A stretch of 26,428 nucleotides of DNA from an uncultured virus (IMG/VR IMGVR_UViG_3300036815_000199) (Duplodnaviria; Heunggongvirae; Uroviricota; Caudoviricetes). The stretch lies in the IMG/VR virus record IMGVR_UViG_3300036815_000199; one strand, 5' to 3'. A model generated the notes under the pieces. That model was not told the DNA's origin and did no database searches. It saw only the letters and a program-made list of their open reading frames with translations. Shown piece by piece: positions 5,633 through 25,318 of this stretch (the stretch's first letter is position 1; every line of letters starts with the position of its first letter). A program made the translations under genes and the position numbers.

Positions 5633-5826
5633 CGGTCGCGCCGGTGGGCCAGGACGGCGGACAGGTTGTTAACCGGGAAGTCGCCGGCGTCGGTGCGGAC
5701 GGCGACCAGGCGGCCGCCTTCGTCCTTGCCGTAGCTGCGCACCTGCTGGCCGTCGGCGAGCTGCTGCCCGCCGCTCGCGGCGATCCAGGTGACTGCCCAC
5801 GCGGTGTCGGTGGTGTCGGTGGCCAT
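5629..5826 (-). CDS. hypothetical protein
   Basis: Preceded by CTGAAGGAGAGACCCG RBS and promoter motif copy 1. Confidence 0.8.
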   Translation of the reverse strand: MATDTTDTAWAVTWIAASGGQQLADGQQVRSYGKDEGGRLVAVRTDAGDFPVNNLSAVLAHRRDR

Positions 5827-5845
5827 CGGGTCTCTCCTTCAGTAA

Positions 5846-5872
5846 CCGTGATACGTATATATACACGGTACC
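5846..5872 (-). promoter_or_regulatory. conserved promoter motif, copy 1
   Basis: GG-TACCGT-GTATAT-ATACGTATCACGG; TANNNT -10 element. Confidence 0.7.
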
Positions 5873-5918
5873 ATACGGGGGCCGCCGTGGCGCCCCGTCG
5901 CCAGCGTCACCGGCCGGG

Positions 5919-5945
5919 GGTACCGTCGATATATCAGCATCACGA
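5919..5945 (+). promoter_or_regulatory. conserved promoter motif, copy 2 (divergent from copy 1)
   Basis: GG-TACCGT-CGATAT-ATCAGCATCACGA followed by CCTGAAGGAGAGAC. Confidence 0.7.
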
Positions 5946-5963
5946 CCTGAAGGAGAGACACCC

Positions 5964-6461
5964 ATGGCCCACGACCCGCACGCCGCCGGCGCCAACCAGC
6001 TCGGCCGCGACCTGGAAGCCACCGCCAACTCGCCGGCCTGGATCCGCGGCGGCCACCCAGACGCACGCGACTACACCGTCGACTGGCGCATCGACGTCGC
6101 CGCCGTCACCCCCGAGGACGCCGCCCGCGCCGCCCTGGCCGCCCAGCGGCGCCGCGGATCGACCGCCGGCGTGTTCGACGTCACCGACGGCTCCAGCCGG
6201 TGGCGCGTCGACCTGACCCACGGCATCACAGCGCCGCTGGCGGCCGGGCCGCCGGAGCCCGGCGGGCTACTGCACGTGTTCACGCTGCGCGTCCCCGCCG
6301 AGGCGGTGACCGGCAGCCCGCCGGGATGGGGGACGGCGCTGATCGGCCAGATCCGCCGGCTGATGGCCGACGCCGGGATCGGCGACTACGAGCTGGCGCT
6401 GTCGACCATCGGGCGGGGCACCGTCGAGTTCGGCGGGTTCGAGGACGCCGAGGACGTGTGA
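5964..6461 (+). CDS. hypothetical protein (phage/plasmid-type)
   Basis: Strong RBS; YTVDWRIDV..TPEDAA...QR...STAGVFDV segment resembles a recurrent mobile-element hypothetical family (from recall). Confidence 0.8.
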   Translation: MAHDPHAAGANQLGRDLEATANSPAWIRGGHPDARDYTVDWRIDVAAVTPEDAARAALAAQRRRGSTAGVFDVTDGSSRWRVDLTHGITAPLAAGPPEPGGLLHVFTLRVPAEAVTGSPPGWGTALIGQIRRLMADAGIGDYELALSTIGRGTVEFGGFEDAEDV

Positions 6462-6514
6462 CCGGCGTCCTACGGAAACCGGCCGGCGGGCGGCACCCCC
6501 GGCCGCCCCCGGCT

Positions 6515-6541
6515 GGTACTATGTATATATGAGCAACACGA
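6515..6541 (+). promoter_or_regulatory. conserved promoter motif, copy 3 (leaderless start)
   Basis: GG-TACTAT-GTATAT-ATGAGCAACACGA; ATG lies 6 nt after the -10. Confidence 0.8.
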
Positions 6542-6720
6542 CAGCCAGTCACTCGGCCGCCTGCGACGGCACCGCCCGCCCGTGGGTCTACGGCACCTGC
6601 GGCTACGGGTCGCTGCGCACCGTCGCCGGCACCCTGACCGCCTGCTGCCGCGTTGCCGCGTGCGACGCCGCCGAGGCGATCGACCCCGCCATGACCGCCA
6701 TCTGCCAGGCTGCCGCCTGA
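6529..6720 (+). CDS. small Cys-rich protein, probably leaderless; paralog of 9623-9895
   Basis: MSNTTA..CDGT..W..GT..RTVAGTLTACC. Confidence 0.75.
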   Translation: MSNTTASHSAACDGTARPWVYGTCGYGSLRTVAGTLTACCRVAACDAAEAIDPAMTAICQAAA

Positions 6721-6742
6721 CCACCTGAAGGAGAGAGACACC

Positions 6743-7282
6743 ATGACCAACGACGTGACGGTCGAGAGCATCCCGCTCGACGACCTGTACGCCCGCTACA
6801 CCCGCAACGAGCAGGCGATCCGCGCCGTCCACGACGTCGTGACCCTGATGAACGACAAGACCCCCGGCAAGCTGTACACCGTGGTCAAGACCAACCCGAC
6901 CACGCTGATCCTCGCGCCCGCCGACGGCGGCCTGCAGGTCAAGGCGTCCCGGTGCCTGGTCGAGGACGCGCCCGCCGGATCGGCCGCCAAGATCGCCGAC
7001 TCCTACGCCGCCGCCCTGCCGCACCAGCCGGTCGGCGCGCTGGTCCGCGTCAAGTACCAGACCGCCGCCGGGATCAACCCCGGCGAGGTCGCCGTCGTGA
7101 TCGTCGACAAGGGTGACATCGTGCACGTCGCCAAGATCGGCGGCGTCAGCACCCCGAAGGGCGACGCCTACGCCCGGCTGCCGCGCCGCCTGCTCGAGGC
7201 CGTCAAGCCGGCCGACGTGCTGGTGCCCGCCGAGGTCAAGCCGGTCGCCACCGCCCGCCCGTCACGCCGCCGGAGGTCATGA
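6743..7282 (+). CDS. hypothetical protein, possibly tandem SH3/KOW-like beta-barrels
   Basis: CCACCTGAAGGAGAGAGACACC RBS; PGKLYTVVKTN and VGALVRV..GEVAVV beta-rich segments. Confidence 0.8.
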   Translation: MTNDVTVESIPLDDLYARYTRNEQAIRAVHDVVTLMNDKTPGKLYTVVKTNPTTLILAPADGGLQVKASRCLVEDAPAGSAAKIADSYAAALPHQPVGALVRVKYQTAAGINPGEVAVVIVDKGDIVHVAKIGGVSTPKGDAYARLPRRLLEAVKPADVLVPAEVKPVATARPSRRRRS

Positions 7283-7989
7283 TGCAGTACCGGTTCACGT
7301 GCGCCCAGCACAACGTGGTGCTGGGCGGCTGCCCCGAGTTCTACCCCGCCGCCGAGGACGCGGCCGGGGTCGCCGAGTGGGTCATCGACCTGTCCGACAT
7401 GTCGTGCAGCGCCGACGACGCCTCCGACAACGGCTCCGGCTGCGCCGCCACCTGGCAGATCACCGCCGCCGGGGTCAGCCTCGCCGCGTTCACCCCCGCC
7501 GAGGTCGCCGGGCTGTCCGACGCGCTCGCCGTCGCCGAGAACGTCGACGAGCACCTGACCCGCGACCAGCTCGCCGCGGCCGCCAAGCTCGACGCGGCGT
7601 TCGCGGCGGTCCCCGAGCCGCCCGCCGACCGCTACCCGGCGCCCGACCCCGCCGCGACCGGCTGGGAGACCGCCTACCCCGAGCTGTCCGACGAGACGGC
7701 GTGCCTGGTCATGCAGGAGATCCTGGTCGACACCGAGTTCCTGTACCTGACGGCGGTCGACCCGCCGTCCGGCGAGCGCGGCGAGGTCACCCTCGTCGAC
7801 GCGGTCACCACGTTCGCGGGCAACTGCTGGGACGACCAGCACGACGGCGGCGCCCACCGGCAGAACCTGATCGACGCCAACCGGCTGCTGATCTGGCTGG
7901 GCCGCCCCGACCTGGCCGACGACTACAACGACGTGCACAGCCTGGTCGGCGACGACGTGCCCGAGCCCGAGCGGTGGGCGAGCACGTGA
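7279..7989 (+). CDS. acidic hypothetical protein
   Basis: GGAGG RBS, ATGA overlap, high GC3. Confidence 0.8.
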   Translation: MMQYRFTCAQHNVVLGGCPEFYPAAEDAAGVAEWVIDLSDMSCSADDASDNGSGCAATWQITAAGVSLAAFTPAEVAGLSDALAVAENVDEHLTRDQLAAAAKLDAAFAAVPEPPADRYPAPDPAATGWETAYPELSDETACLVMQEILVDTEFLYLTAVDPPSGERGEVTLVDAVTTFAGNCWDDQHDGGAHRQNLIDANRLLIWLGRPDLADDYNDVHSLVGDDVPEPERWAST

Positions 7990-8510
7990 CCGCCTACGAC
8001 ATGATGCCGGGCGTCCCGGCCGCCGGCCACATCGTCGGCGGCGCCTGGCACCCCGGCCCGTCCCACCACTGCACCAAGTGCGAGCACCGGCCGCGGCCGG
8101 GCACCGAGGCCGCCGCCCGGTTCTACCTGCAGCGCGACCTGTCGTTCGGCCTCGCCGCCGACGTCGCGATCGGCAACGCCCGCCGGCACCCCGGGAAGGT
8201 CGCCTACACTCCCGACGGCGTCGCCTGGGTCACCGTCGACCGCCGCGGCCGCTGGTCCTGCGGCCGGTCGTCCCGCGCCGAGCAGCACGTCGCCCACGAC
8301 CGGTCCAGCACGCCCGTCGCCACCCGGGTCGACCCCGACCAGGTCCGCGACGGCGACCGGCTGACCTGGCTGTCGCCGAAGGGCGACGCGACCCTGACAG
8401 GGACCGTCGAGTACGCCACCGCCGAGGCGGTGCACGTGGCCAGCGGCGCCTACCGCTACCCGATCGCCTGGACCCGGGTCACCGGCCACTGGCCGAAGGA
8501 GAGAGCATGA
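7986..8510 (+). CDS. hypothetical protein
   Basis: GTGA overlap; 3' part of track ORF 7113-8510; HHCTKC motif and beta-rich C-terminus. Confidence 0.75.
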   Translation: MTAYDMMPGVPAAGHIVGGAWHPGPSHHCTKCEHRPRPGTEAAARFYLQRDLSFGLAADVAIGNARRHPGKVAYTPDGVAWVTVDRRGRWSCGRSSRAEQHVAHDRSSTPVATRVDPDQVRDGDRLTWLSPKGDATLTGTVEYATAEAVHVASGAYRYPIAWTRVTGHWPKERA

Positions 8511-8827
8511 TCCACGTCATCTACACCGAGCCCAGCCCGTTCGGGGCGATGCTGACCGACCGGCAGTTCCGGTCGCCCGACGCCGCCCGCAGGTTCGTCG
8601 CCACGATCGCCGACGGCGACGTCCCGTACCTGGTCATCGACGGCGAACTTGTTAACGAGGAATGGACTTCGCACGCCGGCGGTCCGCTCGGCCGCGACCT
8701 GGAAACACGCGGCCGCGCCGAGCGGGCCGAGGAACTGTACGGCGCCGAGACGCTCAGGGACGACGACGACCGGGCCGAGCACGACGCCGAGGCCGCCTAC
8801 GACGCCGTGATGAGGGACCACCGGTGA
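8507..8827 (+). CDS. acidic hypothetical protein (MIHVIYTEPS...)
   Basis: GAAGGAGAGAGC RBS, ATGA overlap. Confidence 0.8.
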   Translation: MIHVIYTEPSPFGAMLTDRQFRSPDAARRFVATIADGDVPYLVIDGELVNEEWTSHAGGPLGRDLETRGRAERAEELYGAETLRDDDDRAEHDAEAAYDAVMRDHR

Positions 8828-9033
8828 GCGGCTTCTACGCGATCCGGCAGGCCCGCACGCGGGTGATCGGGTCGCGGTCGATGACCCGCGCCGAGGCCGA
8901 CCGGGAGGTCGCCGTCTGGGCGGCCGAGATCGGCCCCGCCCGCGTCCTGCCGGTCACCCCCGACCTGGCGCACGCGGTGCGCTACTACGACCAGGCCATC
9001 CTGGTGCCCGCGCTGAAGGGAGAGCCCTGGTGA
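8824..9033 (+). CDS. hypothetical protein
   Basis: GTGA overlap, GAGGG RBS. Confidence 0.7.
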   Translation: MSGFYAIRQARTRVIGSRSMTRAEADREVAVWAAEIGPARVLPVTPDLAHAVRYYDQAILVPALKGEPW

Positions 9034-9125
9034 CCGGATTCTGGGAGGGCCTGGCCACCGCCGCGATCGTCGTCGCGGTCATCGCCCTGGCGGCGGTGCT
9101 GGCGTTCTGGAGGACGCAGCCATGA
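9030..9125 (+). CDS. 31-aa single-TM microprotein (MTGFWEGLATAAIVVAVIALAAVLAFWRTQP)
   Basis: Translated by hand; GAAGGGAG RBS; start/stop overlaps at both ends. Confidence 0.7.
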   Translation: MTGFWEGLATAAIVVAVIALAAVLAFWRTQP

Positions 9126-9517
9126 CCGCCGCCGAGGTCCGCCGCAGCCCGCGCCGCGCCCTGCTCAAGCACCTGTTCGACTGCCACGGCGTCATGCTGA
9201 CCCGCGCCGACGCCCGCCGGTCGCTCGGCGCGATCGCCGACTACGACCCGTGCGGTGACGCGCCGCCGCTCGGCGACTGCGACCTCGGCGTCGACGCCGA
9301 GGGCTACCGGGTCCGCCGCAGCGGCGGCACCGACTTCCGGGTGTCCGGCTGCTGCGCCAAGGACGCCACCACCCTCGACGGCGACGACGAGGGCACCATC
9401 GTCTGCCGCCGCTGCAAGCGGCCCATCGACGAGGCGGTCGCGCTGTCCCCGCTGCTGCCCTACCTGGCGCCGGACGGGCACGTGCTGGTCCGCGCCAGCA
9501 CCGCTACGGGCTACTGA
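9122..9517 (+). CDS. Cys-rich hypothetical protein (SGCC...VCRRC, actinophage-like)
   Basis: GGAGG RBS, ATGA overlap. Confidence 0.75.
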   Translation: MTAAEVRRSPRRALLKHLFDCHGVMLTRADARRSLGAIADYDPCGDAPPLGDCDLGVDAEGYRVRRSGGTDFRVSGCCAKDATTLDGDDEGTIVCRRCKRPIDEAVALSPLLPYLAPDGHVLVRASTATGY

Positions 9518-9608
9518 GTAGCAGGCGAGCGGCCGTGGCCCGGCGGGCTACGGGACGCAGGTCCCGGCCCGGCCAGGCCCGGCAGGGCGCCACCGGGCGG
9601 TCCCATGC

Positions 9609-9635
9609 CGTATTATGGATATATGAGGAACACGA
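9609..9635 (+). promoter_or_regulatory. conserved promoter motif, copy 4 (leaderless start)
   Basis: CG-TATTAT-GGATAT-ATGAGGAACACGA. Confidence 0.8.
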
Positions 9636-9895
9636 CAGCTATCACCGCCCGGCACTGCTCGGGCTGCGCCCAGGCCGACCCCATCGACGACGGCGACGGC
9701 TACACCGACTGCTGCAACGAGTGGATCTGCGACGGCACCGGCGCCGACCGGTGGACCGTCGGGACCCTCACGTTCGACGAGGCCGGCCGCGAGGTCCGCA
9801 CCGTCACCGGCGAGCTGCTCGCCTGCTGCGGCGGCCGGGCCGACAAGCTGGCCGCCGACCAGGCCCCCGGCCGCATCGCGCTGTGCCGCAACTGA
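9623..9895 (+). CDS. small Cys-rich protein, probably leaderless; paralog of 6529-6720
   Basis: MRNTTA..CSGC..GYTDCCNE..CDGT..W..GT..RTVTGELLACC. Confidence 0.8.
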   Translation: MRNTTAITARHCSGCAQADPIDDGDGYTDCCNEWICDGTGADRWTVGTLTFDEAGREVRTVTGELLACCGGRADKLAADQAPGRIALCRN

Positions 9896-9919
9896 CCACC
9901 ACCTGAAGGAGAGACCGAC

Positions 9920-10243
9920 ATGACGACCCCCGACACCAGCCGGACCCACCGGTTCCCGCCGACCGGCTGCGTCAACCAATGGGCCGCCGACCACGACCAT
10001 GCCGACTGCTGGGCCGCCTTCCTGGCCTTCCACGAGGCACCGGCCGGGCTGGGCATCGACGAGTTCTACCGCTGGCTGGAGACGACCCCGCACGCCGCCG
10101 ACATCACCCCCGACGGCGACGGGTTCCTGGTGACCTGCCGCCGCGGCTGCGCGCTGGGCACCAGCGCGCGCCAGAGCGACCGGGCGGGCGCCGACCGGCG
10201 GGTCCGGCAGCACCGGATCTGCACGATCCCGCTGACCGCCTGA
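9920..10243 (+). CDS. His/Cys-rich hypothetical protein
   Basis: CCACCTGAAGGAGAGACCGAC RBS. Confidence 0.8.
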   Translation: MTTPDTSRTHRFPPTGCVNQWAADHDHADCWAAFLAFHEAPAGLGIDEFYRWLETTPHAADITPDGDGFLVTCRRGCALGTSARQSDRAGADRRVRQHRICTIPLTA

Positions 10244-10261
10244 GTGTGCCGGAGGGCACAC
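10244..10261 (+). terminator. hairpin immediately after the stop codon
   Basis: GTGTGCC-GGAG-GGCACAC; no U-tract. Confidence 0.45.
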
Positions 10262-10301
10262 CGATCCGGTACCGGCCAGGGCGACAATCCGCCGCCCGGC
10301 C

Positions 10302-10328
10302 GGTATTATGGATATATGAGCAACACGG
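10302..10328 (+). promoter_or_regulatory. conserved promoter motif, copy 5
   Basis: GG-TATTAT-GGATAT-ATGAGCAACACGG followed by CTGAAGGAG. Confidence 0.8.
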
Positions 10329-10345
10329 CCACTGAAGGAGCCCCG

Positions 10346-10858
10346 ATGACCACCCCGACGACCAGCCGCGACGTCCGCGCCAACCCGACCAACGCGGCCG
10401 GCCGCTACGTCGAAACCGCCGAGTACATCCAGGCGGCCCGCCGGTTCGTCCGCGGCGCCGGCCGGCGGGTCGGGGACATGAACATCGACGACCTCGACAT
10501 GCTCATGGCGCTGGCCGAGGAAGCCAACGCGATCCTGCACGAGGCCGCCCGCGACCTGCACGACCGCGAGAAGGACGGCTACTCCTGGCAGGAGATCGGC
10601 GAGGCCGTCGGCTACGACCCGAGCCACGCCCGGCACACCGCCTGGAAGCGGTTCAGGGGCGCCCGCAAGGCGTTCCCGGCCGCGCGCCGCACGGTCGTCA
10701 AGGACGACATCGTGGGCGTGTCCGGCCGCAAGTACGCCGGCCGGGCGTTCCGCGTCGAGCGGGTCAGCGGCGCGACCGCGCTGCTGGCGCCGGTCGGCGG
10801 CGGCCCGAAGGTCCGCGCGTTCCACGACCTGATCACCGACGCACCCCAGGAGGGCTGA
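10346..10858 (+). CDS. HTH DNA-binding protein (in-frame leaderless alternative start at 10316)
   Basis: VETAEY..ARRFVRGAGRRVG...GYSWQEIGEAVG...AWKRF resembles an HTH family common on actinobacterial plasmids/phages. Confidence 0.8.
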   Translation: MTTPTTSRDVRANPTNAAGRYVETAEYIQAARRFVRGAGRRVGDMNIDDLDMLMALAEEANAILHEAARDLHDREKDGYSWQEIGEAVGYDPSHARHTAWKRFRGARKAFPAARRTVVKDDIVGVSGRKYAGRAFRVERVSGATALLAPVGGGPKVRAFHDLITDAPQEG

Positions 10859-10861
10859 GCG

Positions 10862-11107
10862 ATGGACCTGCCCGGCAAGGACCTGCTGTTCCTCAACGTC
10901 GCCGTGGCCTGCAGTCGCCCGGGCTGCGCCCCGGCGACCCCGTGCCCGGCCTGCGCCGACATCGTGCGCGAGCCGCTGATCGGCGAGCGGTTCCGGCTGA
11001 TCGCCGCCGCCGCCGCCGAGCCGCCCGGTCCCGACCGGGACGCGCTGACCGCTCGCATCACCGCGATCGAGAACTGGCTCGACGCCCACCCCGAGCAGGA
11101 GGCCTGA
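10862..11107 (+). CDS. small Cys-rich protein
   Basis: GGAGG RBS; C-x4-C-x5-CPAC. Confidence 0.75.
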   Translation: MDLPGKDLLFLNVAVACSRPGCAPATPCPACADIVREPLIGERFRLIAAAAAEPPGPDRDALTARITAIENWLDAHPEQEA

Positions 11108-11108
11108 C

Positions 11109-11465
11109 ATGGACGAGCAGCGCGACTACGCCGAAGAGGCATACAACGCCCGGTTCTGCCAGGCGTGCGGGACCAGCCCGTGCGGCTGGGACGGGCAGCC
11201 CGACGGCTTCCACACCGACGACCCGGCGCCCGCCCCGGAGCCCTACCGGGCCAGCGTGACCCTCCCGGCCACCGATGCCCACCCGTACACCTGGACGATC
11301 ACCTGGCCGGCCGGCTGGACCCCGCCCGGCTACCACGTCACCGTCTGCCCGGCGTGCGGGCAGGTCACCGAGCCCTACAGCGACACCGACCCGCGCATCG
11401 TCCACCGCGACACCGGCTGGGCCCTGTGCGGCGACCCCGCCACCTGGAAGGACACATCATCATGA
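11109..11465 (+). CDS. Cys-rich hypothetical protein
   Basis: AGGAGG RBS; CQAC and CPAC. Confidence 0.75.
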   Translation: MDEQRDYAEEAYNARFCQACGTSPCGWDGQPDGFHTDDPAPAPEPYRASVTLPATDAHPYTWTITWPAGWTPPGYHVTVCPACGQVTEPYSDTDPRIVHRDTGWALCGDPATWKDTSS

Positions 11466-11812
11466 CCGCCACCGCCTACCGCCCGGGCGCCCGCGTCGCG
11501 CACTTCGCCGACCCGACCTGCCTGGGCTCGGTGACCGTCGCCGAGCTGGGCACCATCCTGGTCGCCTGGGACAACGGCAACGAGCAGCGCCTGACCCCCG
11601 AGGCGGTCACCCCGGCCCCGGCCGAGCCGTACCCGTCGCCGGCGGACATCAGCTACGACGAGGACAGCCGCTGGTGCCAGGACCACGGGCACACCGGCCT
11701 GCTCACCGGCGACATGTGCGTTACCTGCGACCGGCTGGCCGCCACCGACCGGCGGTTCGCCGCGGTGCTCGACACCGTGCACAACCCCGACGGATCCCGC
11801 CGGACCGCGTAG
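11462..11812 (+). CDS. hypothetical protein (SH3-like N-terminus, C/H-rich C-terminus)
   Basis: ATGA overlap; YRPGARV..GSV..VAWDNG; CQDH..CVTC. Confidence 0.75.
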   Translation: MTATAYRPGARVAHFADPTCLGSVTVAELGTILVAWDNGNEQRLTPEAVTPAPAEPYPSPADISYDEDSRWCQDHGHTGLLTGDMCVTCDRLAATDRRFAAVLDTVHNPDGSRRTA

Positions 11813-11868
11813 CCCGCCGGGCTACGGCTAAGCAAGAGCAAGCAAGCACAGCGAAGGAGAGAGACCCG

Positions 11869-12333
11869 ATGACCAAGAAGACCATCGAGGGCACGTGGGG
11901 CACCGAGCCGCTGACCTACGGCGGCACCGCCAAGGGCAAGACCGTCGCCCGCCTGTCCGTCTGGTACGACCAGGACCGCGCCGACGCCGCGTTCACCCCC
12001 GACAAGGGGCGCCACTACGCGATCGGCGGCGTCTACGACACCGAGGTCTGCCGCGACGCCGAGGGCGCGATCGTCGGCCGCCGCGGCACGCCCCGGTTCA
12101 CCGGCACCCACCCCGACACCGAGTGGGTCGCCGCGCTCGAGGCCGACGACTACGCCGCCCAGCAGAAGATCGCCACCGGGCAGCTGGAGCGCCGCGCCGC
12201 CCGCGACAGCGAGATCGACAAGGCGCTGCAGCCCGTCGAGGACCTGGCCGCCGGCCTGAACTACGCCCAGCGCGACGCGCTGGTGGCGATGGTCACCCGC
12301 CGGATCTACCGGGCCAGGGCCGGGAGGGGGTGA
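11869..12333 (+). CDS. hypothetical protein (MTKKTIEGTW...)
   Basis: GAAGGAGAGAGACCCG RBS; high GC3. Confidence 0.8.
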   Translation: MTKKTIEGTWGTEPLTYGGTAKGKTVARLSVWYDQDRADAAFTPDKGRHYAIGGVYDTEVCRDAEGAIVGRRGTPRFTGTHPDTEWVAALEADDYAAQQKIATGQLERRAARDSEIDKALQPVEDLAAGLNYAQRDALVAMVTRRIYRARAGRG

Positions 12334-12344
12334 CGGCCGCGGAG

Positions 12345-12409
12345 GGCGAAACCCCCGGATAACGTCGGGGGGTCCGCGCGGAGACGAGCGCCCGCGCGCT
12401 GACGAGGCC
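12345..12409 (+). ncRNA. type II hammerhead ribozyme
   Basis: GGC-GAAA-CCCCC..GGGGG-TC^-CGCGCGG-loop-CCGCGCG-CTGACGA-G-GCC. All core nucleotides and stems I-III are present; predicted cut after C12374. Confidence 0.88.
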
Positions 12410-12450
12410 AGCCGGCCATCAGCCCAGCTCGCACCTGAAGGAGAGAGACC

Positions 12451-12927
12451 ATGTACCCGTACCCAGACACCACCATCGACACCGGCCAGCCCGCCGCCCG
12501 CCCGGTCTACCGCCGCCCGGCCGTCCTCGCCGTGATCGCCATCGTGGTGATCGCCGCGACCGCGCTTAGCCTGTTCCTCGCCGGCGTGTTTACCAGCCAG
12601 GCGCAGACCCCGGCCGGCATCTTGCAGGCTGACGGCTACACCGTCACCGCATCGCAGACCGTCGACCAGGCCGCCGCCGCCGGCGCATTCAACGACGCCA
12701 CGGGCAAGACCCTCAAGCCGTACATCGTGGCGATCGCCGCGGGCACGCACGGGAAGGCCGGCGAGGGCGTCGTCCAGCTGACCGACGCCGGCCGCACCAT
12801 GTTCGCCAGCCTGATGCCGCTGCTCAGCGGCCAGATGAGCGCCGGCGTGACCGCCCACATGGCCGGCAACTTCCTGGTCCTGGACGGCACGGCGGCGCAG
12901 GTCGGCACGATCGGCAGCTTCGGATGA
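12451..12927 (+). CDS. membrane-anchored/secreted protein
   Basis: RRPAVLAVIAIVVIAATALSLFLAGVF TM segment; strong RBS. Confidence 0.85.
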   Translation: MYPYPDTTIDTGQPAARPVYRRPAVLAVIAIVVIAATALSLFLAGVFTSQAQTPAGILQADGYTVTASQTVDQAAAAGAFNDATGKTLKPYIVAIAAGTHGKAGEGVVQLTDAGRTMFASLMPLLSGQMSAGVTAHMAGNFLVLDGTAAQVGTIGSFG

Positions 12928-13337
12928 CCGCCGCCGCCACCCCGGCGGGCGCCCACGCGGCGCCCGGCCGGGGCCGGACCACCGTCATCATCGCCGCCGC
13001 CGTCATCGCCGCCGTGGTCGCCGTCGTGGCGTTCCTCGCCGTGACCGTGACCGGGCAGTCCGGCCAGATCGGCGCGCTGCGCGGCCAGGTCGCCACCGCC
13101 CAGCACGCCGCCGACGCGGCGAGCGCCAAGGCCAACGCGGCCGCCGGGACCCGCTCGGCCGCCGCCACCGCCCACCTCGGCGTCTGCGTGGCCACCAGCT
13201 ACAACAGCGACGCCGGCGCGAGCTGGGTCCAGTCCGTCGCCGTGACCGCGCCGGTGCTGGTCTCCGGCGTCGCCTCGTGCCCGTCGGGCACGTTCGTCCC
13301 CGTCAGCCCGCAGCCCGGCGGCCAGCCCGCCAGCTAA
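12924..13337 (+). CDS. membrane-anchored protein with Ala-rich stalk
   Basis: N-terminal TM, ATGA overlap, two Cys in the C-terminal domain. Confidence 0.8.
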   Translation: MTAAATPAGAHAAPGRGRTTVIIAAAVIAAVVAVVAFLAVTVTGQSGQIGALRGQVATAQHAADAASAKANAAAGTRSAAATAHLGVCVATSYNSDAGASWVQSVAVTAPVLVSGVASCPSGTFVPVSPQPGGQPAS

Positions 13338-13343
13338 CCCGCG

Positions 13344-13377
13344 CCCGGCCCGGCCGCTCCCCGGCGGCCGGGCCGGG
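13344..13377 (+). terminator. 14-bp GC hairpin
   Basis: CCCGGCCCGGCCGC / GCGGCCGGGCCGGG just after the stop at 13337; no U-tract. Confidence 0.55.
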
Positions 13378-13427
13378 GCGACGGGACGAGCGTCCCGTGA
13401 CCTGCGGTTACCCCCTCGCCGCGTTGC

Positions 13428-13440
13428 CGATATATAGTCT
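13428..13440 (+). promoter_or_regulatory. probable -10 element (TATAGT)
   Basis: CGATATATAGTCT AT patch about 50 nt upstream of the 13488 start. Confidence 0.5.
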
Positions 13441-13487
13441 GGTCAGTCGCCGGTTACCGGTGACCACCTGAAGGAGAGAGACACACC

Positions 13488-13727
13488 ATGACCGATCCGC
13501 AGCCGGGCATCACCTGCCCGCCCGACCCCGGGCGCCTGATCAGCGACGCGCGCCGCCAGCAGGGATTCCGCGACCAGGCCCACCTCGACCGGTGGTTCGC
13601 CTACTCCGACCACACCAAGGAGTGCCCGGACTGCGGCCTGCCCGGCGACGGCTACGACGGCCCCGACGGCTGGCAGCCCACCGTCACCCAGTGCGCCGAC
13701 GCCGCGCGCCTGCTCGCGCTGGTCTGA
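13488..13727 (+). CDS. small H/C Zn-binding hypothetical protein
   Basis: CCACCTGAAGGAGAGAGACACACC RBS; H-x3-CPDC...C. Confidence 0.8.
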   Translation: MTDPQPGITCPPDPGRLISDARRQQGFRDQAHLDRWFAYSDHTKECPDCGLPGDGYDGPDGWQPTVTQCADAARLLALV

Positions 13728-13762
13728 CCGTCGCCGCGGCGACGGCTGACCGGCAATCAACT

Positions 13763-13817
13763 GGACCGAAACGCGCAAACGGCGTCCGGGGGACAGAGAC
13801 CCCGCCGATGATGGTCC
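13763..13817 (+). ncRNA. type II hammerhead ribozyme, core variant (CCGAUGA)
   Basis: GGACC-GAAA-CGC..GCG-TC^-CGGGG-GACAGAGA-CCCCG-CCGATGA-T-GGTCC; predicted cut after C13786. Confidence 0.8.
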
Positions 13818-13858
13818 CAACGCCCGTCACCGAACTGCACACAGAAAGAGACACCACC

Positions 13859-14167
13859 ATGGCACCGAACACCACCCCGAAGCCCGACGAGATCGCCCGC
13901 ACGCTGGCCGGCTACGCGACCGCCGACCTGTCGACCACCTGCGCGATCTTCGCCGGCATCCTGCAGTCGGTCCGCCTGACCGGCCCCGACGACCAGATCC
14001 CGGCCGGCATGGCCGGCGCCAAGGCAGGCGCCGACAAGCTGCGCGTCGAGACCGACAAGTGGGGCAAGCGCTTCCGCAAGGTCAACGGCACCGGCCAGGC
14101 GGCCGACGACCCGATCGCCAAGCTGGTCGCCGCCGGCCAGGCCGCCCTCGCCCAGCCCGCCGAGTAG
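13859..14167 (+). CDS. hypothetical protein (MAPNTTPKPD...)
   Basis: AGAAAGAG RBS downstream of the ribozyme; high GC3. Confidence 0.8.
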   Translation: MAPNTTPKPDEIARTLAGYATADLSTTCAIFAGILQSVRLTGPDDQIPAGMAGAKAGADKLRVETDKWGKRFRKVNGTGQAADDPIAKLVAAGQAALAQPAE

Positions 14168-14260
14168 GCGCCAGTCCCCCGACCGCCCGCGCGCCCCGTT
14201 AGTGGGGCCGGGGCGCGCGGGCACCCCGGGACCAGCCCCCCGCCAGCGAAGGAGACCACG

Positions 14261-14716
14261 ATGACGACGACGATGACCAGGTACGCGGTCCACGCCGGGT
14301 TCATCTACGACCCGCGGCTGCTGACCCCCGGCGCGGTCGAGAAGCTCACCGACCGGGCGCTGATGGCGCTGGCCGTCGCGCTGACCCCCGGCTACCTGAC
14401 CCCGGGCGGCATCGAGAAGACCAAGACCGGCAAGCAGCGGCAGATCGACGAGGCCAAGCTCGACACCCTGCTGCGGCTGATGGTCAACGACCTGCACATC
14501 CGCACCGCCGACGGCTACACCGAGAGCGCGCTGCGGTTCCGGCTGGCCGCGCTCGGCGCCGACCGCGGCGTCCTGCAGCCCGACGGGTCCCCGTTCGGGC
14601 GGCCGGCCCGCGACCACGGCCCGTGGGCGCTGTGGGACGTGATGACCGACCAGCGCCGGGACCGCGAAGAGCCCGGCCGCCGCACCTCGGCGCGCGGCTG
14701 CGCGCCGCGCTACTGA
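14261..14716 (+). CDS. hypothetical protein
   Basis: GAAGGAG RBS. Confidence 0.8.
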   Translation: MTTTMTRYAVHAGFIYDPRLLTPGAVEKLTDRALMALAVALTPGYLTPGGIEKTKTGKQRQIDEAKLDTLLRLMVNDLHIRTADGYTESALRFRLAALGADRGVLQPDGSPFGRPARDHGPWALWDVMTDQRRDREEPGRRTSARGCAPRY

Positions 14717-14744
14717 CACCACCACCACGAAGGAGAGAGACCCG

Positions 14745-15140
14745 ATGACCGACATTCACCCCGACGCCGACCCGACCCCGGGCAGGTACGTGATCGCGCT
14801 GCACGACACCGGCGACCCGGCGACCGCGCACCGCGACATCTACGACCCCGACGGCAACTGGCTGTCGATGCTCGACGAGGGCACGCCGGTGACCGGCGCG
14901 ATGCCCGACCTGGCCCTCGGCCCCGCCGAGTTCGCCTACCTCGCCGACGTGTTCGCCCGCGTCCTGGCCGAGGCCGAGGGCGAGCAGTCGACGGCGGGCA
15001 TGTTCGGCCCGTTCGCGGCGATCGCCCAGATCGCGCTGACCAGCCCGGCGATCCGCCAGCAGGTCGACGAGAACCCGCCCGTTCCCGGTCGCTCGGCGCC
15101 AAGCGAGTGCCCGCACCCGGCACGCTGCGGATTCCGCTGA
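14745..15140 (+). CDS. hypothetical protein
   Basis: GAAGGAGAGAGACCCG RBS. Confidence 0.8.
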   Translation: MTDIHPDADPTPGRYVIALHDTGDPATAHRDIYDPDGNWLSMLDEGTPVTGAMPDLALGPAEFAYLADVFARVLAEAEGEQSTAGMFGPFAAIAQIALTSPAIRQQVDENPPVPGRSAPSECPHPARCGFR

Positions 15141-15245
15141 GGCCTGACCGCGGCGCGTCCCGCACAGGCCCCGCCACGCGCCGGGGCCTGCGCGGGTGCG
15201 CGGCCCGGGACAGTCCCGCAAGCCACGGCACCTGAAGGAGCCACC

Positions 15246-15644
15246 ATGAAACGCACCACCACCCGCCGCCTCGTCCTGATCGCGGCCGGCCCCGCCGCGC
15301 TGGCGGGCCTGCTGCTGACGTCCGGCACCGCCTTCGCGAGCACCGGCCCAGCCGGCAACGGGCAGACCGGCCACCTGACCGGCAAGAGCGCCGTCTCCTA
15401 CACCGACCCGTGGTTCGGCCCGGTCCGGTGCAACGAGACCCAGCACCCGACGTTCGACACCGTGTCGTGCCAGTCCACCACCGGCGCGCCGGTGACGAAC
15501 GCGTCGCCCGGCCAGGTCATCTCGTTCCCCGGCCAGTGGAACTCTGACTTCGCCGGCGGCCCGGCGGGCGGCTCGATCACCGTCACCGTCAACGCGGACG
15601 GCATGGGCTACACCGGCCAGGCCACCTACCCGGCGGCCGGCTAA
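15246..15644 (+). CDS. secreted protein
   Basis: Signal peptide MKRTTTRRLVLIAAGPAALAGLLLTSGTAFA (AxA cleavage site); two Cys. Confidence 0.85.
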   Translation: MKRTTTRRLVLIAAGPAALAGLLLTSGTAFASTGPAGNGQTGHLTGKSAVSYTDPWFGPVRCNETQHPTFDTVSCQSTTGAPVTNASPGQVISFPGQWNSDFAGGPAGGSITVTVNADGMGYTGQATYPAAG

Positions 15645-15685
15645 CAGGGCGTGCCGGGCGGGCGCGGGGTTCCCGGCCGGCACTG

Positions 15686-15729
15686 AAAAAGGGCAGCCGC
15701 CCGGATCCGTCAGGGTCCGGGCGGCTGCC
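15686..15729 (-). terminator. intrinsic terminator of the GntR gene (possibly bidirectional)
   Basis: GGCAGCCGCCCGGA / TCCGGGCGGCTGCC stem with an adjacent A5 tract (U-tract on the minus strand). Confidence 0.75.
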
Positions 15730-15759
15730 TGGTGCGTGACACGATTCGCGTCACGCATG

Positions 15760-16554
15760 TCACGCCAGGTCGAACGCGACCTCCAGCACCCGCCCGGCCA
15801 GCGTGACCTGCTCGAGATAGGACCAGCACCGGCCGGCGGGGTCGAACCACATCCACACCGTGGCCGACACGTACGCGCCCGGTGCCAGGCCGAGCAGCGG
15901 CCCCTCCCGGCCGTCGTCGAGGACCGGCCGCGCCTCATACGCGGTGCGGCCGCGGGCGAACGTGACCGGCTTGTGCGGCCACCGGTCGGGGTCGGCGGTC
16001 CGCTCGGTGATCAGCGGCAGCGCGCCGCGCGGGTCGGCCAGCGGCACCCGGTGCAGCAGCTCGGGGCACGGCCCGGACAGCTCGCCGGGGAACCACTCGA
16101 CCGACAGCGCGAACGGCCGCGAGCCGCCCTCGCCGTCGTCCTCGAGGTAGCGCTGCTCGCGGCGCACCACCGGCACGACCCCGTTGCGCGGCGCGGCCTC
16201 CAGGTCCAGCAGCGGGATCAGCCGCGGGTAGACGGCCGCGGCGTCCAGGTAGTCGGCGGCGGTGACCTCGACGTGCTCGGCGGGCGGCGGCCCGGTCCAC
16301 GACAGGCGCTGCACCGGTCCCTGCTTGTACCGGCCGGCCTGCACGTAGGAGCCGGTCGGGTCGGTGCGGACCAGCCCGTCGACGTCGCGCAGCCAGGTGA
16401 CGGCGCGGTTGGCGGTCGCCGAGCTGACGCCGTGGGCGGCGGCGAGCGCCCGCACCGACGGCAGCCGGATCCCGTCGGCGAGGCGGCCGGTGCTGATGTC
16501 GGCGGCCAGTTCGTCGTGCAGCTGCTCGGCGGGCGACCGCAGGTCGATGGGCAT
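15760..16554 (-). CDS. GntR-family repressor with UTRA-like domain (KorSA/TraR-like)
   Basis: RLPSVRALAAAHGVSSATANRAV wHTH; divergent from transfer genes as on actinomycete plasmids/AICEs. Confidence 0.88.
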   Translation of the reverse strand: MPIDLRSPAEQLHDELAADISTGRLADGIRLPSVRALAAAHGVSSATANRAVTWLRDVDGLVRTDPTGSYVQAGRYKQGPVQRLSWTGPPPAEHVEVTAADYLDAAAVYPRLIPLLDLEAAPRNGVVPVVRREQRYLEDDGEGGSRPFALSVEWFPGELSGPCPELLHRVPLADPRGALPLITERTADPDRWPHKPVTFARGRTAYEARPVLDDGREGPLLGLAPGAYVSATVWMWFDPAGRCWSYLEQVTLAGRVLEVAFDLA

Positions 16555-17342: not shown

Positions 17343-17752
17343 CCCGCACCGCCCGCCGGCCCCTGGCCCGGGTGATCGGCGACGCCACCGACCGTCACCG
17401 CGGCGCGGTCCGCCTCGTCGCCCTGGCCGTGCTGATCGCCGGCGGGATCTGGTGGCACTGGCACACCGTGCTGCCGCTCGTCGCCCTGGCCGGGGCGCTG
17501 GCGGCCGAGGGAACCCGGCTCGCTGCCGAAGCGTGGGGCTGGCAGCGGGCCGGGGGCCGCGCCGAGCTGCGCCGCCAGCGCCGCCACGGCGGCCCCGCGC
17601 CGATGCGCGAGCTGTTCACCCACATGTCGCTGACCGCCGCCCGCCGCGCCGTCCGCGGGCTGCGCCCGTCGCTGGCCGGCCGTCGCCTCCGCTCGATCCC
17701 GGCGCACGACGCGGGGATCTACCTCGGCACCGCGAGGAGGGCAGCGCGATGA
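17339..17752 (+). CDS. membrane protein resembling the N-terminal anchor of a coupling protein
   Basis: Two hydrophobic segments, then G.A..REL...MS..AARR...LRPSL...GIYLG; ATGA overlaps on both sides. Confidence 0.7.
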   Translation: MTRTARRPLARVIGDATDRHRGAVRLVALAVLIAGGIWWHWHTVLPLVALAGALAAEGTRLAAEAWGWQRAGGRAELRRQRRHGGPAPMRELFTHMSLTAARRAVRGLRPSLAGRRLRSIPAHDAGIYLGTARRAAR

Positions 17753-19227
17753 ACTGGTGGCACCTGCGCCCGCAGGTCAACGTCTACGGGTCGTTCCGGT
17801 ACGCCTACGCGGTGATCGGGCCGCCCGGGTCCGGCAAGACCGGGTTCCTGGCCCGCACCGGCCTGGCCGCCCCCGGCCCGGCGCTGATGTCCTCGTCGAA
17901 CTACGAGCTGGCCCGCGACACCGCGGTCGCGCGCAGCCGCGACGGCCTCGGCCCGGTCTGGTGGATCAACCCGCGCGGCGCCGGCGGGTTCCCGTCCAAC
18001 TGCGGCTACAGCCCGCTGGCCGGCTGCGCCGCGCCCGACATGGCGATGGAGGCCGCCGGGGCGCTGATGGCCGCCGCGCCGCACGACAAGAAAGACGCGC
18101 ACTGGGACGGCTGGTCCAAGACGTTCCTGCAGTACCTCATGCACGCCGCCGCGCTGCACCCCGACCGGCCCGACATCCGGCTGGTCCGGCAGTGGGCCGC
18201 CGACCCGGCCAGCCCCGACGAGCCGATGGCCGTCCTGGACCGGTGGGGCACCGACGGCTGGGCGCAGCAGCTCGACGACGTGGCCGCCATGTGCCGCACC
18301 GACGGCGACGGCCGGACCGCCGCGGCGATCGCCGGCGGCGTCCTGGCCGCCCTCGCCTGGCTCGACGACCCCGGCCTGGCGGTGCTGGCCTGCCCGCCGC
18401 CCGGCTATGAGTTCGACGCCCGCGCGTTCCTCCGCGACCGCGGCACCGTCTACGCGATCGGCTCCGACTCCGAGCACAACCCGCAGACCCCGTACCTGTC
18501 CTGTTTCGCCACCCACGTGTGGAACGAGGCCAACCGCGCCGCCCAGGACCCGCTCGAGGCGTGCTCGGCGCGCGGCAAGCTCGACCCGCCGCTGCTGATC
18601 GTCGGCGACGAGCCGGGCAACTCCTGCCTGGTCCCCTACGACAAGTGGGCGTCGACCGCCGGCGGCCGCGGGATCTGCCTGGTCACCGGCTGGCAGTCCG
18701 AGGCGCAGATGCCGCAGCGGTGGGGCGACCACGCCGCCCGGGTGATGCTCGACGCGTTCGGCTGCACCATCGTCTACGGCGGCGTCAAGGGCGAGCTGGC
18801 CACGCTGGCGTCCTCGTGGGCCGCCGACAAGCCCACCTGGACCAAGGGGGAGCGCGGCGCCCGCACGCTCGGCAGCGTGCCGACGTTCAGCCCGGCGGTG
18901 CTCGGCACGCTCAAGGATTTCCGGGCGATGGTCAAGTACAAGAACCGGCGCGCGTTCCTGTGCGACATGCCCGACCCGCGCGACCACCCGTGGTACCGCG
19001 AGGCCACGTTCGCCGACTTCCCGCCCGAGCCGGCGTGGGAGCTGCCCGCGCTGGACTCCCGGTCTCGCCGCGCCGCCGTCCAGGCCGCCGCCGGCGCCGG
19101 CCTGTCCGCCGTCCCGTCCAATGGCCGCCCGGCCGTCACCCGTCAAGGAGCACCGTCATGGCCACCACAACTAAGCAGCAGGCGAGCCCTCCCGGGCGCC
19201 GGCCGTCCTGGCGGGCGCGCCGGCTAG
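17749..19227 (+). CDS. VirD4/TraG/TraD-like type IV coupling ATPase
   Basis: Walker A GPPGSGKT, PGPALMSS, YSPLAGC, Walker B LLIVGDE, GGRGICLVTGWQSEAQMPQRWG. Confidence 0.88.
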   Translation: MNWWHLRPQVNVYGSFRYAYAVIGPPGSGKTGFLARTGLAAPGPALMSSSNYELARDTAVARSRDGLGPVWWINPRGAGGFPSNCGYSPLAGCAAPDMAMEAAGALMAAAPHDKKDAHWDGWSKTFLQYLMHAAALHPDRPDIRLVRQWAADPASPDEPMAVLDRWGTDGWAQQLDDVAAMCRTDGDGRTAAAIAGGVLAALAWLDDPGLAVLACPPPGYEFDARAFLRDRGTVYAIGSDSEHNPQTPYLSCFATHVWNEANRAAQDPLEACSARGKLDPPLLIVGDEPGNSCLVPYDKWASTAGGRGICLVTGWQSEAQMPQRWGDHAARVMLDAFGCTIVYGGVKGELATLASSWAADKPTWTKGERGARTLGSVPTFSPAVLGTLKDFRAMVKYKNRRAFLCDMPDPRDHPWYREATFADFPPEPAWELPALDSRSRRAAVQAAAGAGLSAVPSNGRPAVTRQGAPSWPPQLSSRRALPGAGRPGGRAG

Positions 19228-24012: not shown

Positions 24013-24443
24013 GGGTCCGGATCGGCACCGGCGGGCTGCTGGCGCTGATCGTCCTCGCCGTGATCATCCTGATCGCCGGGCTGCGCTGGCTCGGCTCCAA
24101 CGCCGCCGCTATCAAGGCCGGGGTCGGCACCGGCGTGCTGGTCCTCGTCGTCGCCGGGGTGCTCGGCCTGGCCGTCCACTGGCTGCTGCGCGCCTACCAG
24201 GCCGAGGCGCTGCCCTGGCAGCAGCGGCCCGCGCCGCCCGCCATGCCGCCGGCCGTGATGACCGCCGAGGTGCTGCCCGCCGCCCCGGCCGAGCTGACCG
24301 CGCCGGCCGCGCCTGCCGCGATCGCCGCGCCGCCGCCGGGGGTCACGGTCGTCGTGAGCACCGCCGAGGCCGCCGCGGCGTTCGCCGCCAACCTGCACGT
24401 CCCGCCGCAGGGCGGGCAGGGCGGCGGGAGCCCGGCGGAGTGA
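24009..24443 (+). CDS. two-TM membrane protein with Pro/Ala-rich tail (Spd-like)
   Basis: ATGA overlap; two hydrophobic helices. Confidence 0.75.
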   Translation: MRVRIGTGGLLALIVLAVIILIAGLRWLGSNAAAIKAGVGTGVLVLVVAGVLGLAVHWLLRAYQAEALPWQQRPAPPAMPPAVMTAEVLPAAPAELTAPAAPAAIAAPPPGVTVVVSTAEAAAAFAANLHVPPQGGQGGGSPAE

Positions 24444-24682
24444 CCGCCGCGGCCGGCGCGGGGAGCGTCACTACGATGATGCGCCGCCGCCGCGGCGGCC
24501 AGCCTGGGGCGGCGGCGACAGCCACGTCCACGACACCGCCCCAGGTCCTTGAGGCTGAGCCCACCGGCCGTCCGTGTGTGGCCGCAGGGCACGACGGGAC
24601 GCTATCAAGCCCGCCGCGGCCGCGCCGCCCGAACCGGGGAACTGATGGCGTTTTCACCGCGGCGGCTGAGGGGGCCGCCGCG

Positions 24683-25318
24683 GTGCCCGATCCTGATGGC
24701 GCTTTTACGCAAAAACGCCATAGGAACGCGCACGCCGGGTCGGAGCGGCCCGCCGAGCCGCTGACCCCCGCCGAGGTCGCCGGCCTGCTCGCCGCGTGCT
24801 CGCGGTCCTCCTGGAGCGGGGTCCGCGACCGGGCGATGATCACCGTGCTGTACCGGTCCGGGCTGCGCGTGTCGGAACTGCTCGGCCTGCGGCTGTCCGA
24901 CCTCGACCCGGCCGCGCGGACGCTGCGGCTGCGGCACACCAAATCGCGTCGCCCGCAGACCCGCGGCTACCACCCCGCCGCCGACGACGCCCTGGCGCTG
25001 TGGCTGCAGCTGCGCCGCCCGATGGGGCCCGGGCCGCTGTTCTGCACCCGGGCGGGCGGCCCGATCTGGCCGCAGCAGGTCCGCGCGACGCTCGCCCGCC
25101 TGGCGGCCCGCGCGCAGATCGACAAGGCGGTCCGGCCGCACGGGCTGCGGCACACCCTGGCCGTCGAGCTGCTGCGCGCCGGCGAGGACATCGCCATGAT
25201 CTCCAAGGTGCTGGGCCACTCCTCGATCGCCACCACGGCGCGCTACCTTGATCACCTGACCAACAGCGCCGCGCTGGCCCGGCTCACCACGGCCAGCCTG
25301 CCGGCGCTGGGCCCGTGA
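24683..25318 (+). CDS. tyrosine recombinase, catalytic domain only
   Basis: RDRAMI..LYRSGLRVSE (R), HTK (K), HGLRH, LGHSS, ARYL (Y). Start chosen at GTG after GAGGGG; uncertain, frame is open from 24440. Confidence 0.92.
   Translation: MPDPDGAFTQKRHRNAHAGSERPAEPLTPAEVAGLLAACSRSSWSGVRDRAMITVLYRSGLRVSELLGLRLSDLDPAARTLRLRHTKSRRPQTRGYHPAADDALALWLQLRRPMGPGPLFCTRAGGPIWPQQVRATLARLAARAQIDKAVRPHGLRHTLAVELLRAGEDIAMISKVLGHSSIATTARYLDHLTNSAALARLTTASLPALGP

Follow-up and report, generated by a model that had tools for sequence, protein, structure and literature searches.

A type II hammerhead-like motif in an intercistronic spacer of a conjugative-looking, very GC-rich element

We report a type II hammerhead-like motif, here called HH1, that is located on the + strand in the 117-nt non-coding gap 12334-12450 of the window, i.e., of the whole 26,428-nt stretch of DNA that was analysed (74.6% G+C). 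Based on its sequence and predicted fold, HH1 is almost certainly a member of the hammerhead lineage, and we conclude that it shares ancestry with the type II hammerheads of phages rather than resembling them by chance, because of its match to the Rfam Hammerhead_II model, because of the counts obtained on shuffled DNA and because of its likeness to a covariance model of the phage elements. The family itself is already known, with HH1 being a new, off-consensus member of it that resides in a conjugative-looking actinomycete element. It is considered probable that HH1 still cleaves at a biologically meaningful rate, and the cleavage is expected to be real but slower than that of the canonical members, because an extra G is present and the adjacent pseudoknot between loop I and the tail is missing.

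Architecture of the motif and likeness to hammerhead models

Reading of the sequence recovers every element that the original prediction had named, each at the place it had assigned (Table 1). The elements follow one another in the type II order, that is, the 5' strand of stem II, GAAA, the capped stem III, H17, the capped stem I, CUGANGA and the 3' strand of stem II. The invariant core is complete (C3 U4 G5 A6 N7 G8 A9, G12 A13 A14, A15.1-U16.1, H17), with 13/13 invariant positions and 13/13 pairs of stems I and III intact. The standard pairs next to the core are also present, namely C12375-G12398 (1.1-2.1), G12406-C12347 (10.1-11.1) and A12351-U12373 (15.1-16.1), the presence of such pairs being the rule by which hammerheads were accepted in Perreault et al. 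2011 (PMC3088659), as described there. With the G12406-C12347 pair formed, the following position of stem II is an unpaired G, and in the alignments to both RF02276 and the model R1 described below the extra G appears as an insert or a mispair. Outside the three core-proximal pairs, stem II can be extended by GGCC(G) at 12335-39 with (C)GGCC at 12413-17, so that in the constrained fold the tail AGCCGGCC can pair with the leader to give a stem II of about 9 bp with two internal loops.

Table 1. Coordinates of the features in and around HH1 and HH2 in the window
Feature	Position	Strand	Description and basis
Upstream gene, 154 aa	11869..12333	+	TGA 12331-12333; GC3 frame plot, translation; no family
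Stem II, 5' strand	12335..12347	+	GGC 12345-47 core-proximal; outer GG 12341-42 and GGCC 12335-38; sequence, constrained fold
Core GAAA (G12 A13 A14 A15.1)	12348..12351	+	Sequence, Rfam alignment, descriptor
Stem III hairpin	12351..12373	+	6 bp including A15.1-U16.1; C12352-56/G12368-72; 11-nt loop 12357-12367
GUC	12372-12374	+	C17 = 12374; predicted cleavage 12374/12375, from motif position
Stem I hairpin	12375..12398	+	7 Watson-Crick bp, 12375-12381/12392-12398; 10-nt loop 12382-12391
Core CUGACGA (C3-A9)	12399..12405	+	Sequence, Rfam alignment, descriptor
Extra G	12406	+	Insertion between A9 and G10.1, or G12406 = G10.1 with G12407 bulged in stem II
Stem II, 3' strand GCC, and tail AGCCGGCC	12407..12417	+	GCC 12407-09 pairs with GGC 12345-47
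GCUCG	12427..12431	+	Complement of loop I CGAGC 12385-89; not beyond chance
Ribosome-binding region GAAGGAGAGAGACC and ATG of downstream gene	12437..12453	+	Recurs at many gene starts; repeat families D8, D13, D16
Two overlapping genes	12451-12927, 12924-13337	+	Small proteins, one strongly hydrophobic segment each
HH2	13763..13817	+	GGACC/GAAA/stem III/GUC/stem I/CCGAUGA/extra U 13812/GGUCC; C17 = 13786; stem I 13787-91/13800-04, 5 bp; stem III with one bulge; stem II GGACC/GGUCC
Gene after HH2	13859..14167	+	Near-identical in the related contig L001 along with HH2; upstream gene in L001 unrelated
GntR regulator	15760-16554	minus
TraG-D_C/VirD4-like domain protein	17452-19227
HNH endonuclease			Downstream of the run of small genes
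Tyrosine recombinase	24440-25318

The motif begins 2 nt past the TGA of gene 11869-12333 and ends 33 nt ahead of the ATG at 12451, and the GC3 frame plot gives no codon-position GC bias at 12334-12450. By the same plot a coding reading of the spacer, as well as the minus-strand ORF 11653-12858, was ruled out. A reading of the spacer as a terminator was likewise rejected, as it has no U tract and no terminator-like + strand site.

The cmsearch with Rfam hammerhead models, which the original prediction had put forward as its check, gave a full-length match to Hammerhead_II (RF02276; model positions 1-66 of 66), with E=1.6e-5 in a search of 271 nt and E=0.0015 in a search of the whole window with all 4227 Rfam families, where the runner-up match of any family has E=3.6. 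On the other hand, the score of 34.3 bits lies 2.7 bits below the RF02276 threshold of 37, and no Rfam family reached its gathering score. With a descriptor of our own, which demands the exact core in the type II order and was run on both strands of the window, HH1 is the sole site on either strand, the lengths of stems III/I/II being 6/7/3 bp. On both strands of 1000 dinucleotide-preserving shuffles of the window this descriptor gave 7 matches at stems of at least 3/3/1 bp, none at stems of at least 4/5/1 bp and none at 6/7/3 bp.

The phage elements used for comparison come from a scan of IMG/VR with a pattern of the core plus the initial four pairs of stem III, which gave 98 stretches and, from these, 82 distinct reference elements. 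The covariance model R1, of 71 positions, was built from 76 of these 82 phage type II hammerheads, with those references left out in which the matched part is longer than 60 nt or which are identical across the trimmed span. R1 aligns with HH1 over its full length (positions 1-71 of 71) and gives 44.0 bits (E about 2e-9), with 13.8 bits for the second-best match in the window; this score is partly by construction, since the training set was chosen by a pattern taken from HH1's own stem III and core, while the Rfam model and the shuffles are tests independent of that selection.

It could be argued that HH1 is unrelated to the hammerheads by descent and resembles them by chance, as many stems arise in GC-rich intergenic DNA, as very many windows were scanned so that rare chance motifs are expected somewhere, as the score is below the Rfam threshold, and as the fold of the spacer is no more stable than that of shuffles (z=-0.25), which is not unusual for its composition. 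We regard this as extremely unlikely, however. Stems far looser than those of HH1 gave no match in the 1000 shuffles, the E values are 0.0015 with Rfam and about 2e-9 with R1, the 7-nt tail is that of the phage-family consensus, as is the placement from stop codon to RBS, and a second hammerhead-like element (HH2) is close by. The claim of a type II hammerhead in an intercistronic spacer is thus upheld by the RF02276 match, the shuffles and the R1 score. It is noted that the hammerhead fold lies 4.9 kcal/mol above the minimum free energy of the spacer (-46.5 vs -51.4), with the competing folds being GC-rich.

The extra base and the pairing of loop I

The 82 references have the common layout 'aagGCGAAAC ... 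GUC, stem I, CUGAYGA, GCC, AGCC, RBS, ATG', and many of their source contigs have 65-68% G+C. One reference locus has an identical counterpart in Streptomyces phage Celia and near-identical ones in Urza and Itza, and the nearest relatives of HH1 are the intercistronic hammerheads of Streptomyces phages. As a side observation, canonical type II hammerheads form arrays, with four or more members, in L069, L071 and similar IMG/VR loci and in the cultured phages Celia, Urza and Itza (about 41.7-49.4 kb); in the three phages they lie in the right arm amid small hypothetical genes, where the record features matched are proteins only.

An extra base between CUGAYGA and stem II is present in 6 of the 82 references (U in five, A in one), and HH1 has one extra nucleotide in or next to the core, the G at 12406/12407. 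A scan of IMG/VR for an extra base before GCCAGCC (L114-L181) gave 62 distinct copies, of which 59 have U, two have A, one has G and none has C. By these counts, an extra base at the A9/G10.1 junction is a common, recurrent and tolerated natural variation, of which G is the rare case. The sole G case among the 62, L101, is otherwise canonical, with a normal 4-bp pseudoknot and an R1 score of 43.4 bits, and pattern scans for the extra G as in HH1 returned L101 alone, together with its metagenome twin L108. The natural spectrum (U 59, A 2, G 1, C 0) parallels the ranking of activities in the CChMVd (+) hammerhead, where, according to the summary of De la Pena and Flores 2001 in a review (PMC3705267), which concerns the one hammerhead tested, the extra A10 between A9 and G10.1 has little cost, its change to U raises the rate 3-4-fold, and its change to G or C is strongly detrimental. 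The extra G had originally been taken as harmless; G is the rarest insertion observed (1/62) and was strongly detrimental in CChMVd in that summary. Note also that the extra G of HH1 can be read as a bulge past an intact G10.1-C11.1 pair, in which case the core junction would be canonical.

A complement of at least 4 bp between loop I and the tail is found in 46 of the 82 references, starting 0-3 nt past stem II in 35 of the 46. Such a pseudoknot of at least 4 bp just past stem II belongs to the majority of type II members, not to all, and it is absent from HH1, whose loop I (AGACGAGCGC) has no tail complement at an offset of 0-3 nt past stem II. The sole pairing of at least 4 bp open to loop I of HH1 is CGAGC/GCUCG, with 5 bp, 17 nt past stem II. 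Shuffling the 41-nt tail 20,000 times produced a helix of at least 5 bp with loop I in 9.7% of the cases, and of 644 real segments of this length taken from the window 178 (28%) also have one. The original prediction had placed a pseudoknot between loop I and 12427-31; the 5-bp complement exists there, but it is at chance level by these counts and its offset of 17 nt is atypical.

If HH1 is active, the distal pairing 12385-89/12427-31 could be thought to regulate it by coupling the folding of the ribozyme to the access of the ribosome at gene 12451. The Watson-Crick complement of 5 bp is indeed present, and the long interrupted stem II (12335-47/12407-17) together with a 9-nt linker could return 12427-31 to loop I. 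Such regulation is nevertheless very unlikely in our view, considering that the complement is at the chance level of both the shuffled tails and the real segments, that its position is atypical against the references, and that in the type II hammerhead tested by Perreault et al. 2011 (PMC3088659) insertions around the pseudoknot are described to lower the activity by orders of magnitude. In the same work, kobs at 0.5 mM Mg2+ is reported to fall by orders of magnitude once the pseudoknot is disrupted or displaced. A pseudoknot of HH1 linked to the RBS is an unlikely arrangement, not favoured by the evidence. Instead, the long interrupted stem II may take the place of the pseudoknot in HH1, where it might provide tertiary support.

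The host element, the second motif and related loci

The left part of the window has chromosomal-looking genes, namely a DNA ligase fragment and a P450, with which a scan of genomes gave matches of 31-33% at best, the P450 gene being the query; from about 5.9 kb a long run of small + strand genes follows, past which the regulator, transfer and recombinase genes of Table 1 are located. Among the proteins of the window there is no match to phage structural families, with no capsid or terminase, and from this gene content the element carrying HH1 looks conjugative-type rather than viral. For the genes flanking HH1, no match was obtained in Pfam, PHROGs or NCBIfam, the upstream gene having been queried both as 11275-12333 and as 11869-12333. 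The upstream gene has homologues of 67-76% identity (P0005-P0007) and the downstream genes have three homologues (P0008-P0010), all of them metagenomic.

The RBS context GAAGGAGAGAGAC is common to many genes of the run, and no terminator-like site was found on the + strand between 5800 and 15800; co-transcription of the run of small genes is plausible on this reading of the sequence. Several other features of the run are noted here in their own right. A near-identical start context (CCTGAAGGAGAGAGAC, 3-6 nt, then ATGAC), unusually uniform, stands ahead of at least nine genes, with copies starting at 5942, 6721, 9898, 10324, 11847, 12433, 13463, 14723 and 15224. An AT-rich motif of about 54 nt with the core TATTATGGATATATGAG occurs in three copies (6492-6545, 9586-9639 and 10279-10332) in otherwise 75% GC DNA, and the region's sole sigma-70-like promoter match (10281-10309) overlaps one of them, so these copies may be promoters or operators of the gene run. 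In the spacers 11809-11825, 13728-13745 and 14185-14225, GC-rich hairpins without U tracts are located directly past stop codons, and they may be processing or stability elements in the slot that a hammerhead takes elsewhere.

The second hammerhead-like element, HH2, a degenerate copy, is located in the next long spacer, 13728-13858, 1.4 kb downstream of HH1, with HH1 and HH2 bracketing the three-gene block 12451-13727. It corresponds to the second R1 match (13760-13825; 13.8 bits, E=0.099), and its type II layout is complete by eye, with the core reading CCGAUGA for CUGAUGA, i.e., with U4 changed to C. HH2 was not detected in the Rfam search. With the descriptor relaxed to at most one core mismatch, HH1 and HH2 are alone in the window, and the stem lengths of HH2 with at most one core mismatch are reached in 1 of 706 shuffled windows. 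The unconstrained minimum-free-energy structure of the HH2 spacer is a three-way junction. The bracketing fits the habit of hammerheads to flank short gene blocks, as described in Perreault et al. 2011 (PMC3088659).

Homologous copies of HH1 were found in none of the IMG/VR, JGI metagenome and GTDB genome collections. Searches of phage and plasmid DNA with the locus or the spacer gave short matches at chance level only, and no related loci were returned from GTDB genomes and JGI metagenomes. In IMG/VR there are two related loci, L001 and L107, both without HH1. L001, a 108-kb contig, has a VirD4/TraG-like protein of 78% identity and no HK97-capsid or TerL match; it has the upstream gene at 76% identity, followed by the next gene after 7 nt, with no spacer. 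Its homology with the window begins right upstream of HH2, past unrelated genes, and HH2 is conserved there (6803-6868) apart from a single change in loop I and two more on the 5' side of stem II. A pattern scan for copies of HH2 returned this contig alone. Weak R1 matches in the L001 record (L182) are partial and were rejected as hammerheads. L107 (G002) is a 62.8-kb phage contig with an HK97-type capsid gene, where a 58% homologue of the membrane protein 12451-12927 stands behind a 94-nt spacer without a hammerhead. Since L001 and L107 carry flanking genes without HH1, HH1 is dispensable in these contexts, and the arrangement of the two loci places HH1 and HH2 at junctions of a mosaic, with neither of them tied to the genes beside it. 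Because a phage contig carries the homologue of 12451-12927, the comparison also suggests that phages and the conjugative-type element exchange genes. The DNA of the window is present in the soil metagenome run X1, its probable source, and no RNA run is listed as containing it. Contigs with the spacer at a likeness of at least 80% are present in the soil metagenome runs X2 and X3, where record 9 of X2 spans 11873-12409, record 19 of X3 spans 12278-12449 and several short contigs span 12374-12449; among the differences listed between these relatives and HH1, the sole indel falls in loop III, where the relatives are shorter by a single base at 12367, and the listed substitutions include none within 12313-12752.

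Predicted cleavage and comparison with known systems

Based on the family likeness, the following pathway is proposed. HH1 almost certainly shares its descent with the hammerheads that separate small genes in Streptomyces phages, and its transcript would be part of a polycistronic mRNA, made from an integrated element of conjugative type that resides in a soil actinomycete of high GC content. The transcript would fold co-transcriptionally into the three-way junction and, as expected from the family, be cut between C12374 and C12375. After the cut, the stem III hairpin, carrying a 2',3'-cyclic phosphate, would form the 3' end of the upstream message, and the stem I hairpin, carrying a 5'-OH, would form the 5' end of the message that encodes the two small membrane proteins. 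With both products having a terminal hairpin, as follows from the type II topology, their stability and translation might be uncoupled from the upstream genes. The role of a natural insulator giving a hairpin-protected 5'-OH end, which had been suggested for HH1 from the start, is a reasonable inference from this topology, and an idea of this type matches the hypothesis given in Perreault et al. 2011 (PMC3088659).

From the sequence, self-cleavage of HH1 is plausible but uncertain, and HH1 may cut poorly. Counting for activity are the lack of a terminator-like + strand site in 5800-15800, the natural recurrence of an extra base and the presence of HH2 1.4 kb downstream; counting against it are the sub-threshold score, the extra G, the lack of the adjacent pseudoknot, the more stable competing folds and the relatives without HH1. 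Opposed to an active HH1 is the possibility that it is a decayed phage-type hammerhead, an inactive relic kept as a structured spacer, in which the insertion of the G and the loss of the pseudoknot have made the catalysis dead or negligible in vivo and of which the hairpins may still serve mRNA stability or uncouple the translation of the neighbours. Such decay would be consistent with the extra G being the rarest observed (1/62) and strongly detrimental in CChMVd as reviewed (PMC3705267), with the absence of the canonical pseudoknot and the chance level of the distal 5-bp pairing, with the core mutation of U4 to C in the neighbouring HH2, which indicates decay under way in the element, and with the relatives L001 and L107 that are without the motif. 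By contrast, 13/13 core positions and 13/13 pairs of stems I and III are intact, which is unexpected after a long neutral decay; the hammerhead of L101, canonical in other respects and with a normal pseudoknot, has this extra G too; the G is readable as a bulge in stem II with G10.1-C11.1 in place; and viroid hammerheads with U4C are active enough in vivo, as stated in Perreault et al. 2011 (PMC3088659). We hold the decay to be a possible but somewhat doubtful explanation, and a still cleaving HH1 to be the probable one.

A further reading, which is rather unlikely, is that the hammerheads are portable 5' boundaries of gene cassettes, with HH1 representing a pseudoknot-free architecture that tolerates the extra G. 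Each ribozyme would then move together with the gene that follows it, and its position would show where related elements and phages swap genes, and in HH1 the long interrupted stem II would give the tertiary support. This reading is based on the start of HH2 being the exact start of the homology between the window and L001, and on the genes that flank HH1 occurring apart, in L001 and in the phage contig L107.

With HH1, a true hammerhead relative is missed by the Rfam threshold, which means that annotation undercounts such elements in very GC-rich mobile DNA, and the known setting between prophage genes is extended to a conjugative-looking element. HH1 provides a natural test case for the cost of an extra G at the A9/G10.1 junction and for the function of a type II hammerhead without the adjacent pseudoknot. 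The general picture of 2011 is unchanged.

Synthetic insulators such as RiboJ have a self-cleaving hammerhead followed by a hairpin ahead of the RBS, which gives a defined downstream 5' end. They are engineered from a satellite-RNA hammerhead and have a topology other than that of HH1, for which insulation is a putative effect. With the viroid systems the likeness is local. In the CChMVd hammerhead, as in HH1, a single nucleotide is added where the core meets stem II, but the CChMVd hammerhead is of type III, comes from a viroid and has A as the extra base. The U4C variant, which occurs naturally in viroids and, as cited in Perreault et al. 2011 (PMC3088659), cuts poorly in vitro and sufficiently in vivo, shares the C for U4 with HH2, whereas HH2 is of type II, resides in a bacterial mobile element and has an additional extra U.

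Type II hammerheads between prophage genes have been known since 2011, and the text of Perreault et al. 2011 (PMC3088659) describes several of them as flanking, in the vicinity of integrases, one gene or a short run of genes. A genome paper also predicts class II and III hammerheads in Mycobacterium. Our search, which covered literature outside the subscription journals, gave no paper devoted to naturally occurring hammerheads of Streptomyces phages or of conjugative elements in actinomycetes. With the hammerheads of Streptomyces phages HH1 has in common the core and the circular permutation (stems I and III capped, stem II open), the 3-bp GCC/GGC stem II followed by AGCC, with the leader GGC and with GCCAGCC being the phage consensus, the GC-rich stem III that starts with ACCCC, the position on the sense strand from just past a stop codon to just ahead of an RBS, and the occurrence of several copies flanking short gene blocks near integrase genes. 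It differs from them in the extra G after CUGACGA, in the 10-nt loop I without a tail-pairing motif of the UGG type, in the longer loop III and in the stem II that is extendable to about 9 bp with internal loops, and from the known type II members in scoring 2.7 bits below the Rfam threshold. The element around it, with a VirD4/TraG-like protein and no capsid or terminase match, is conjugative-looking, unlike the phages in which its nearest relatives reside.
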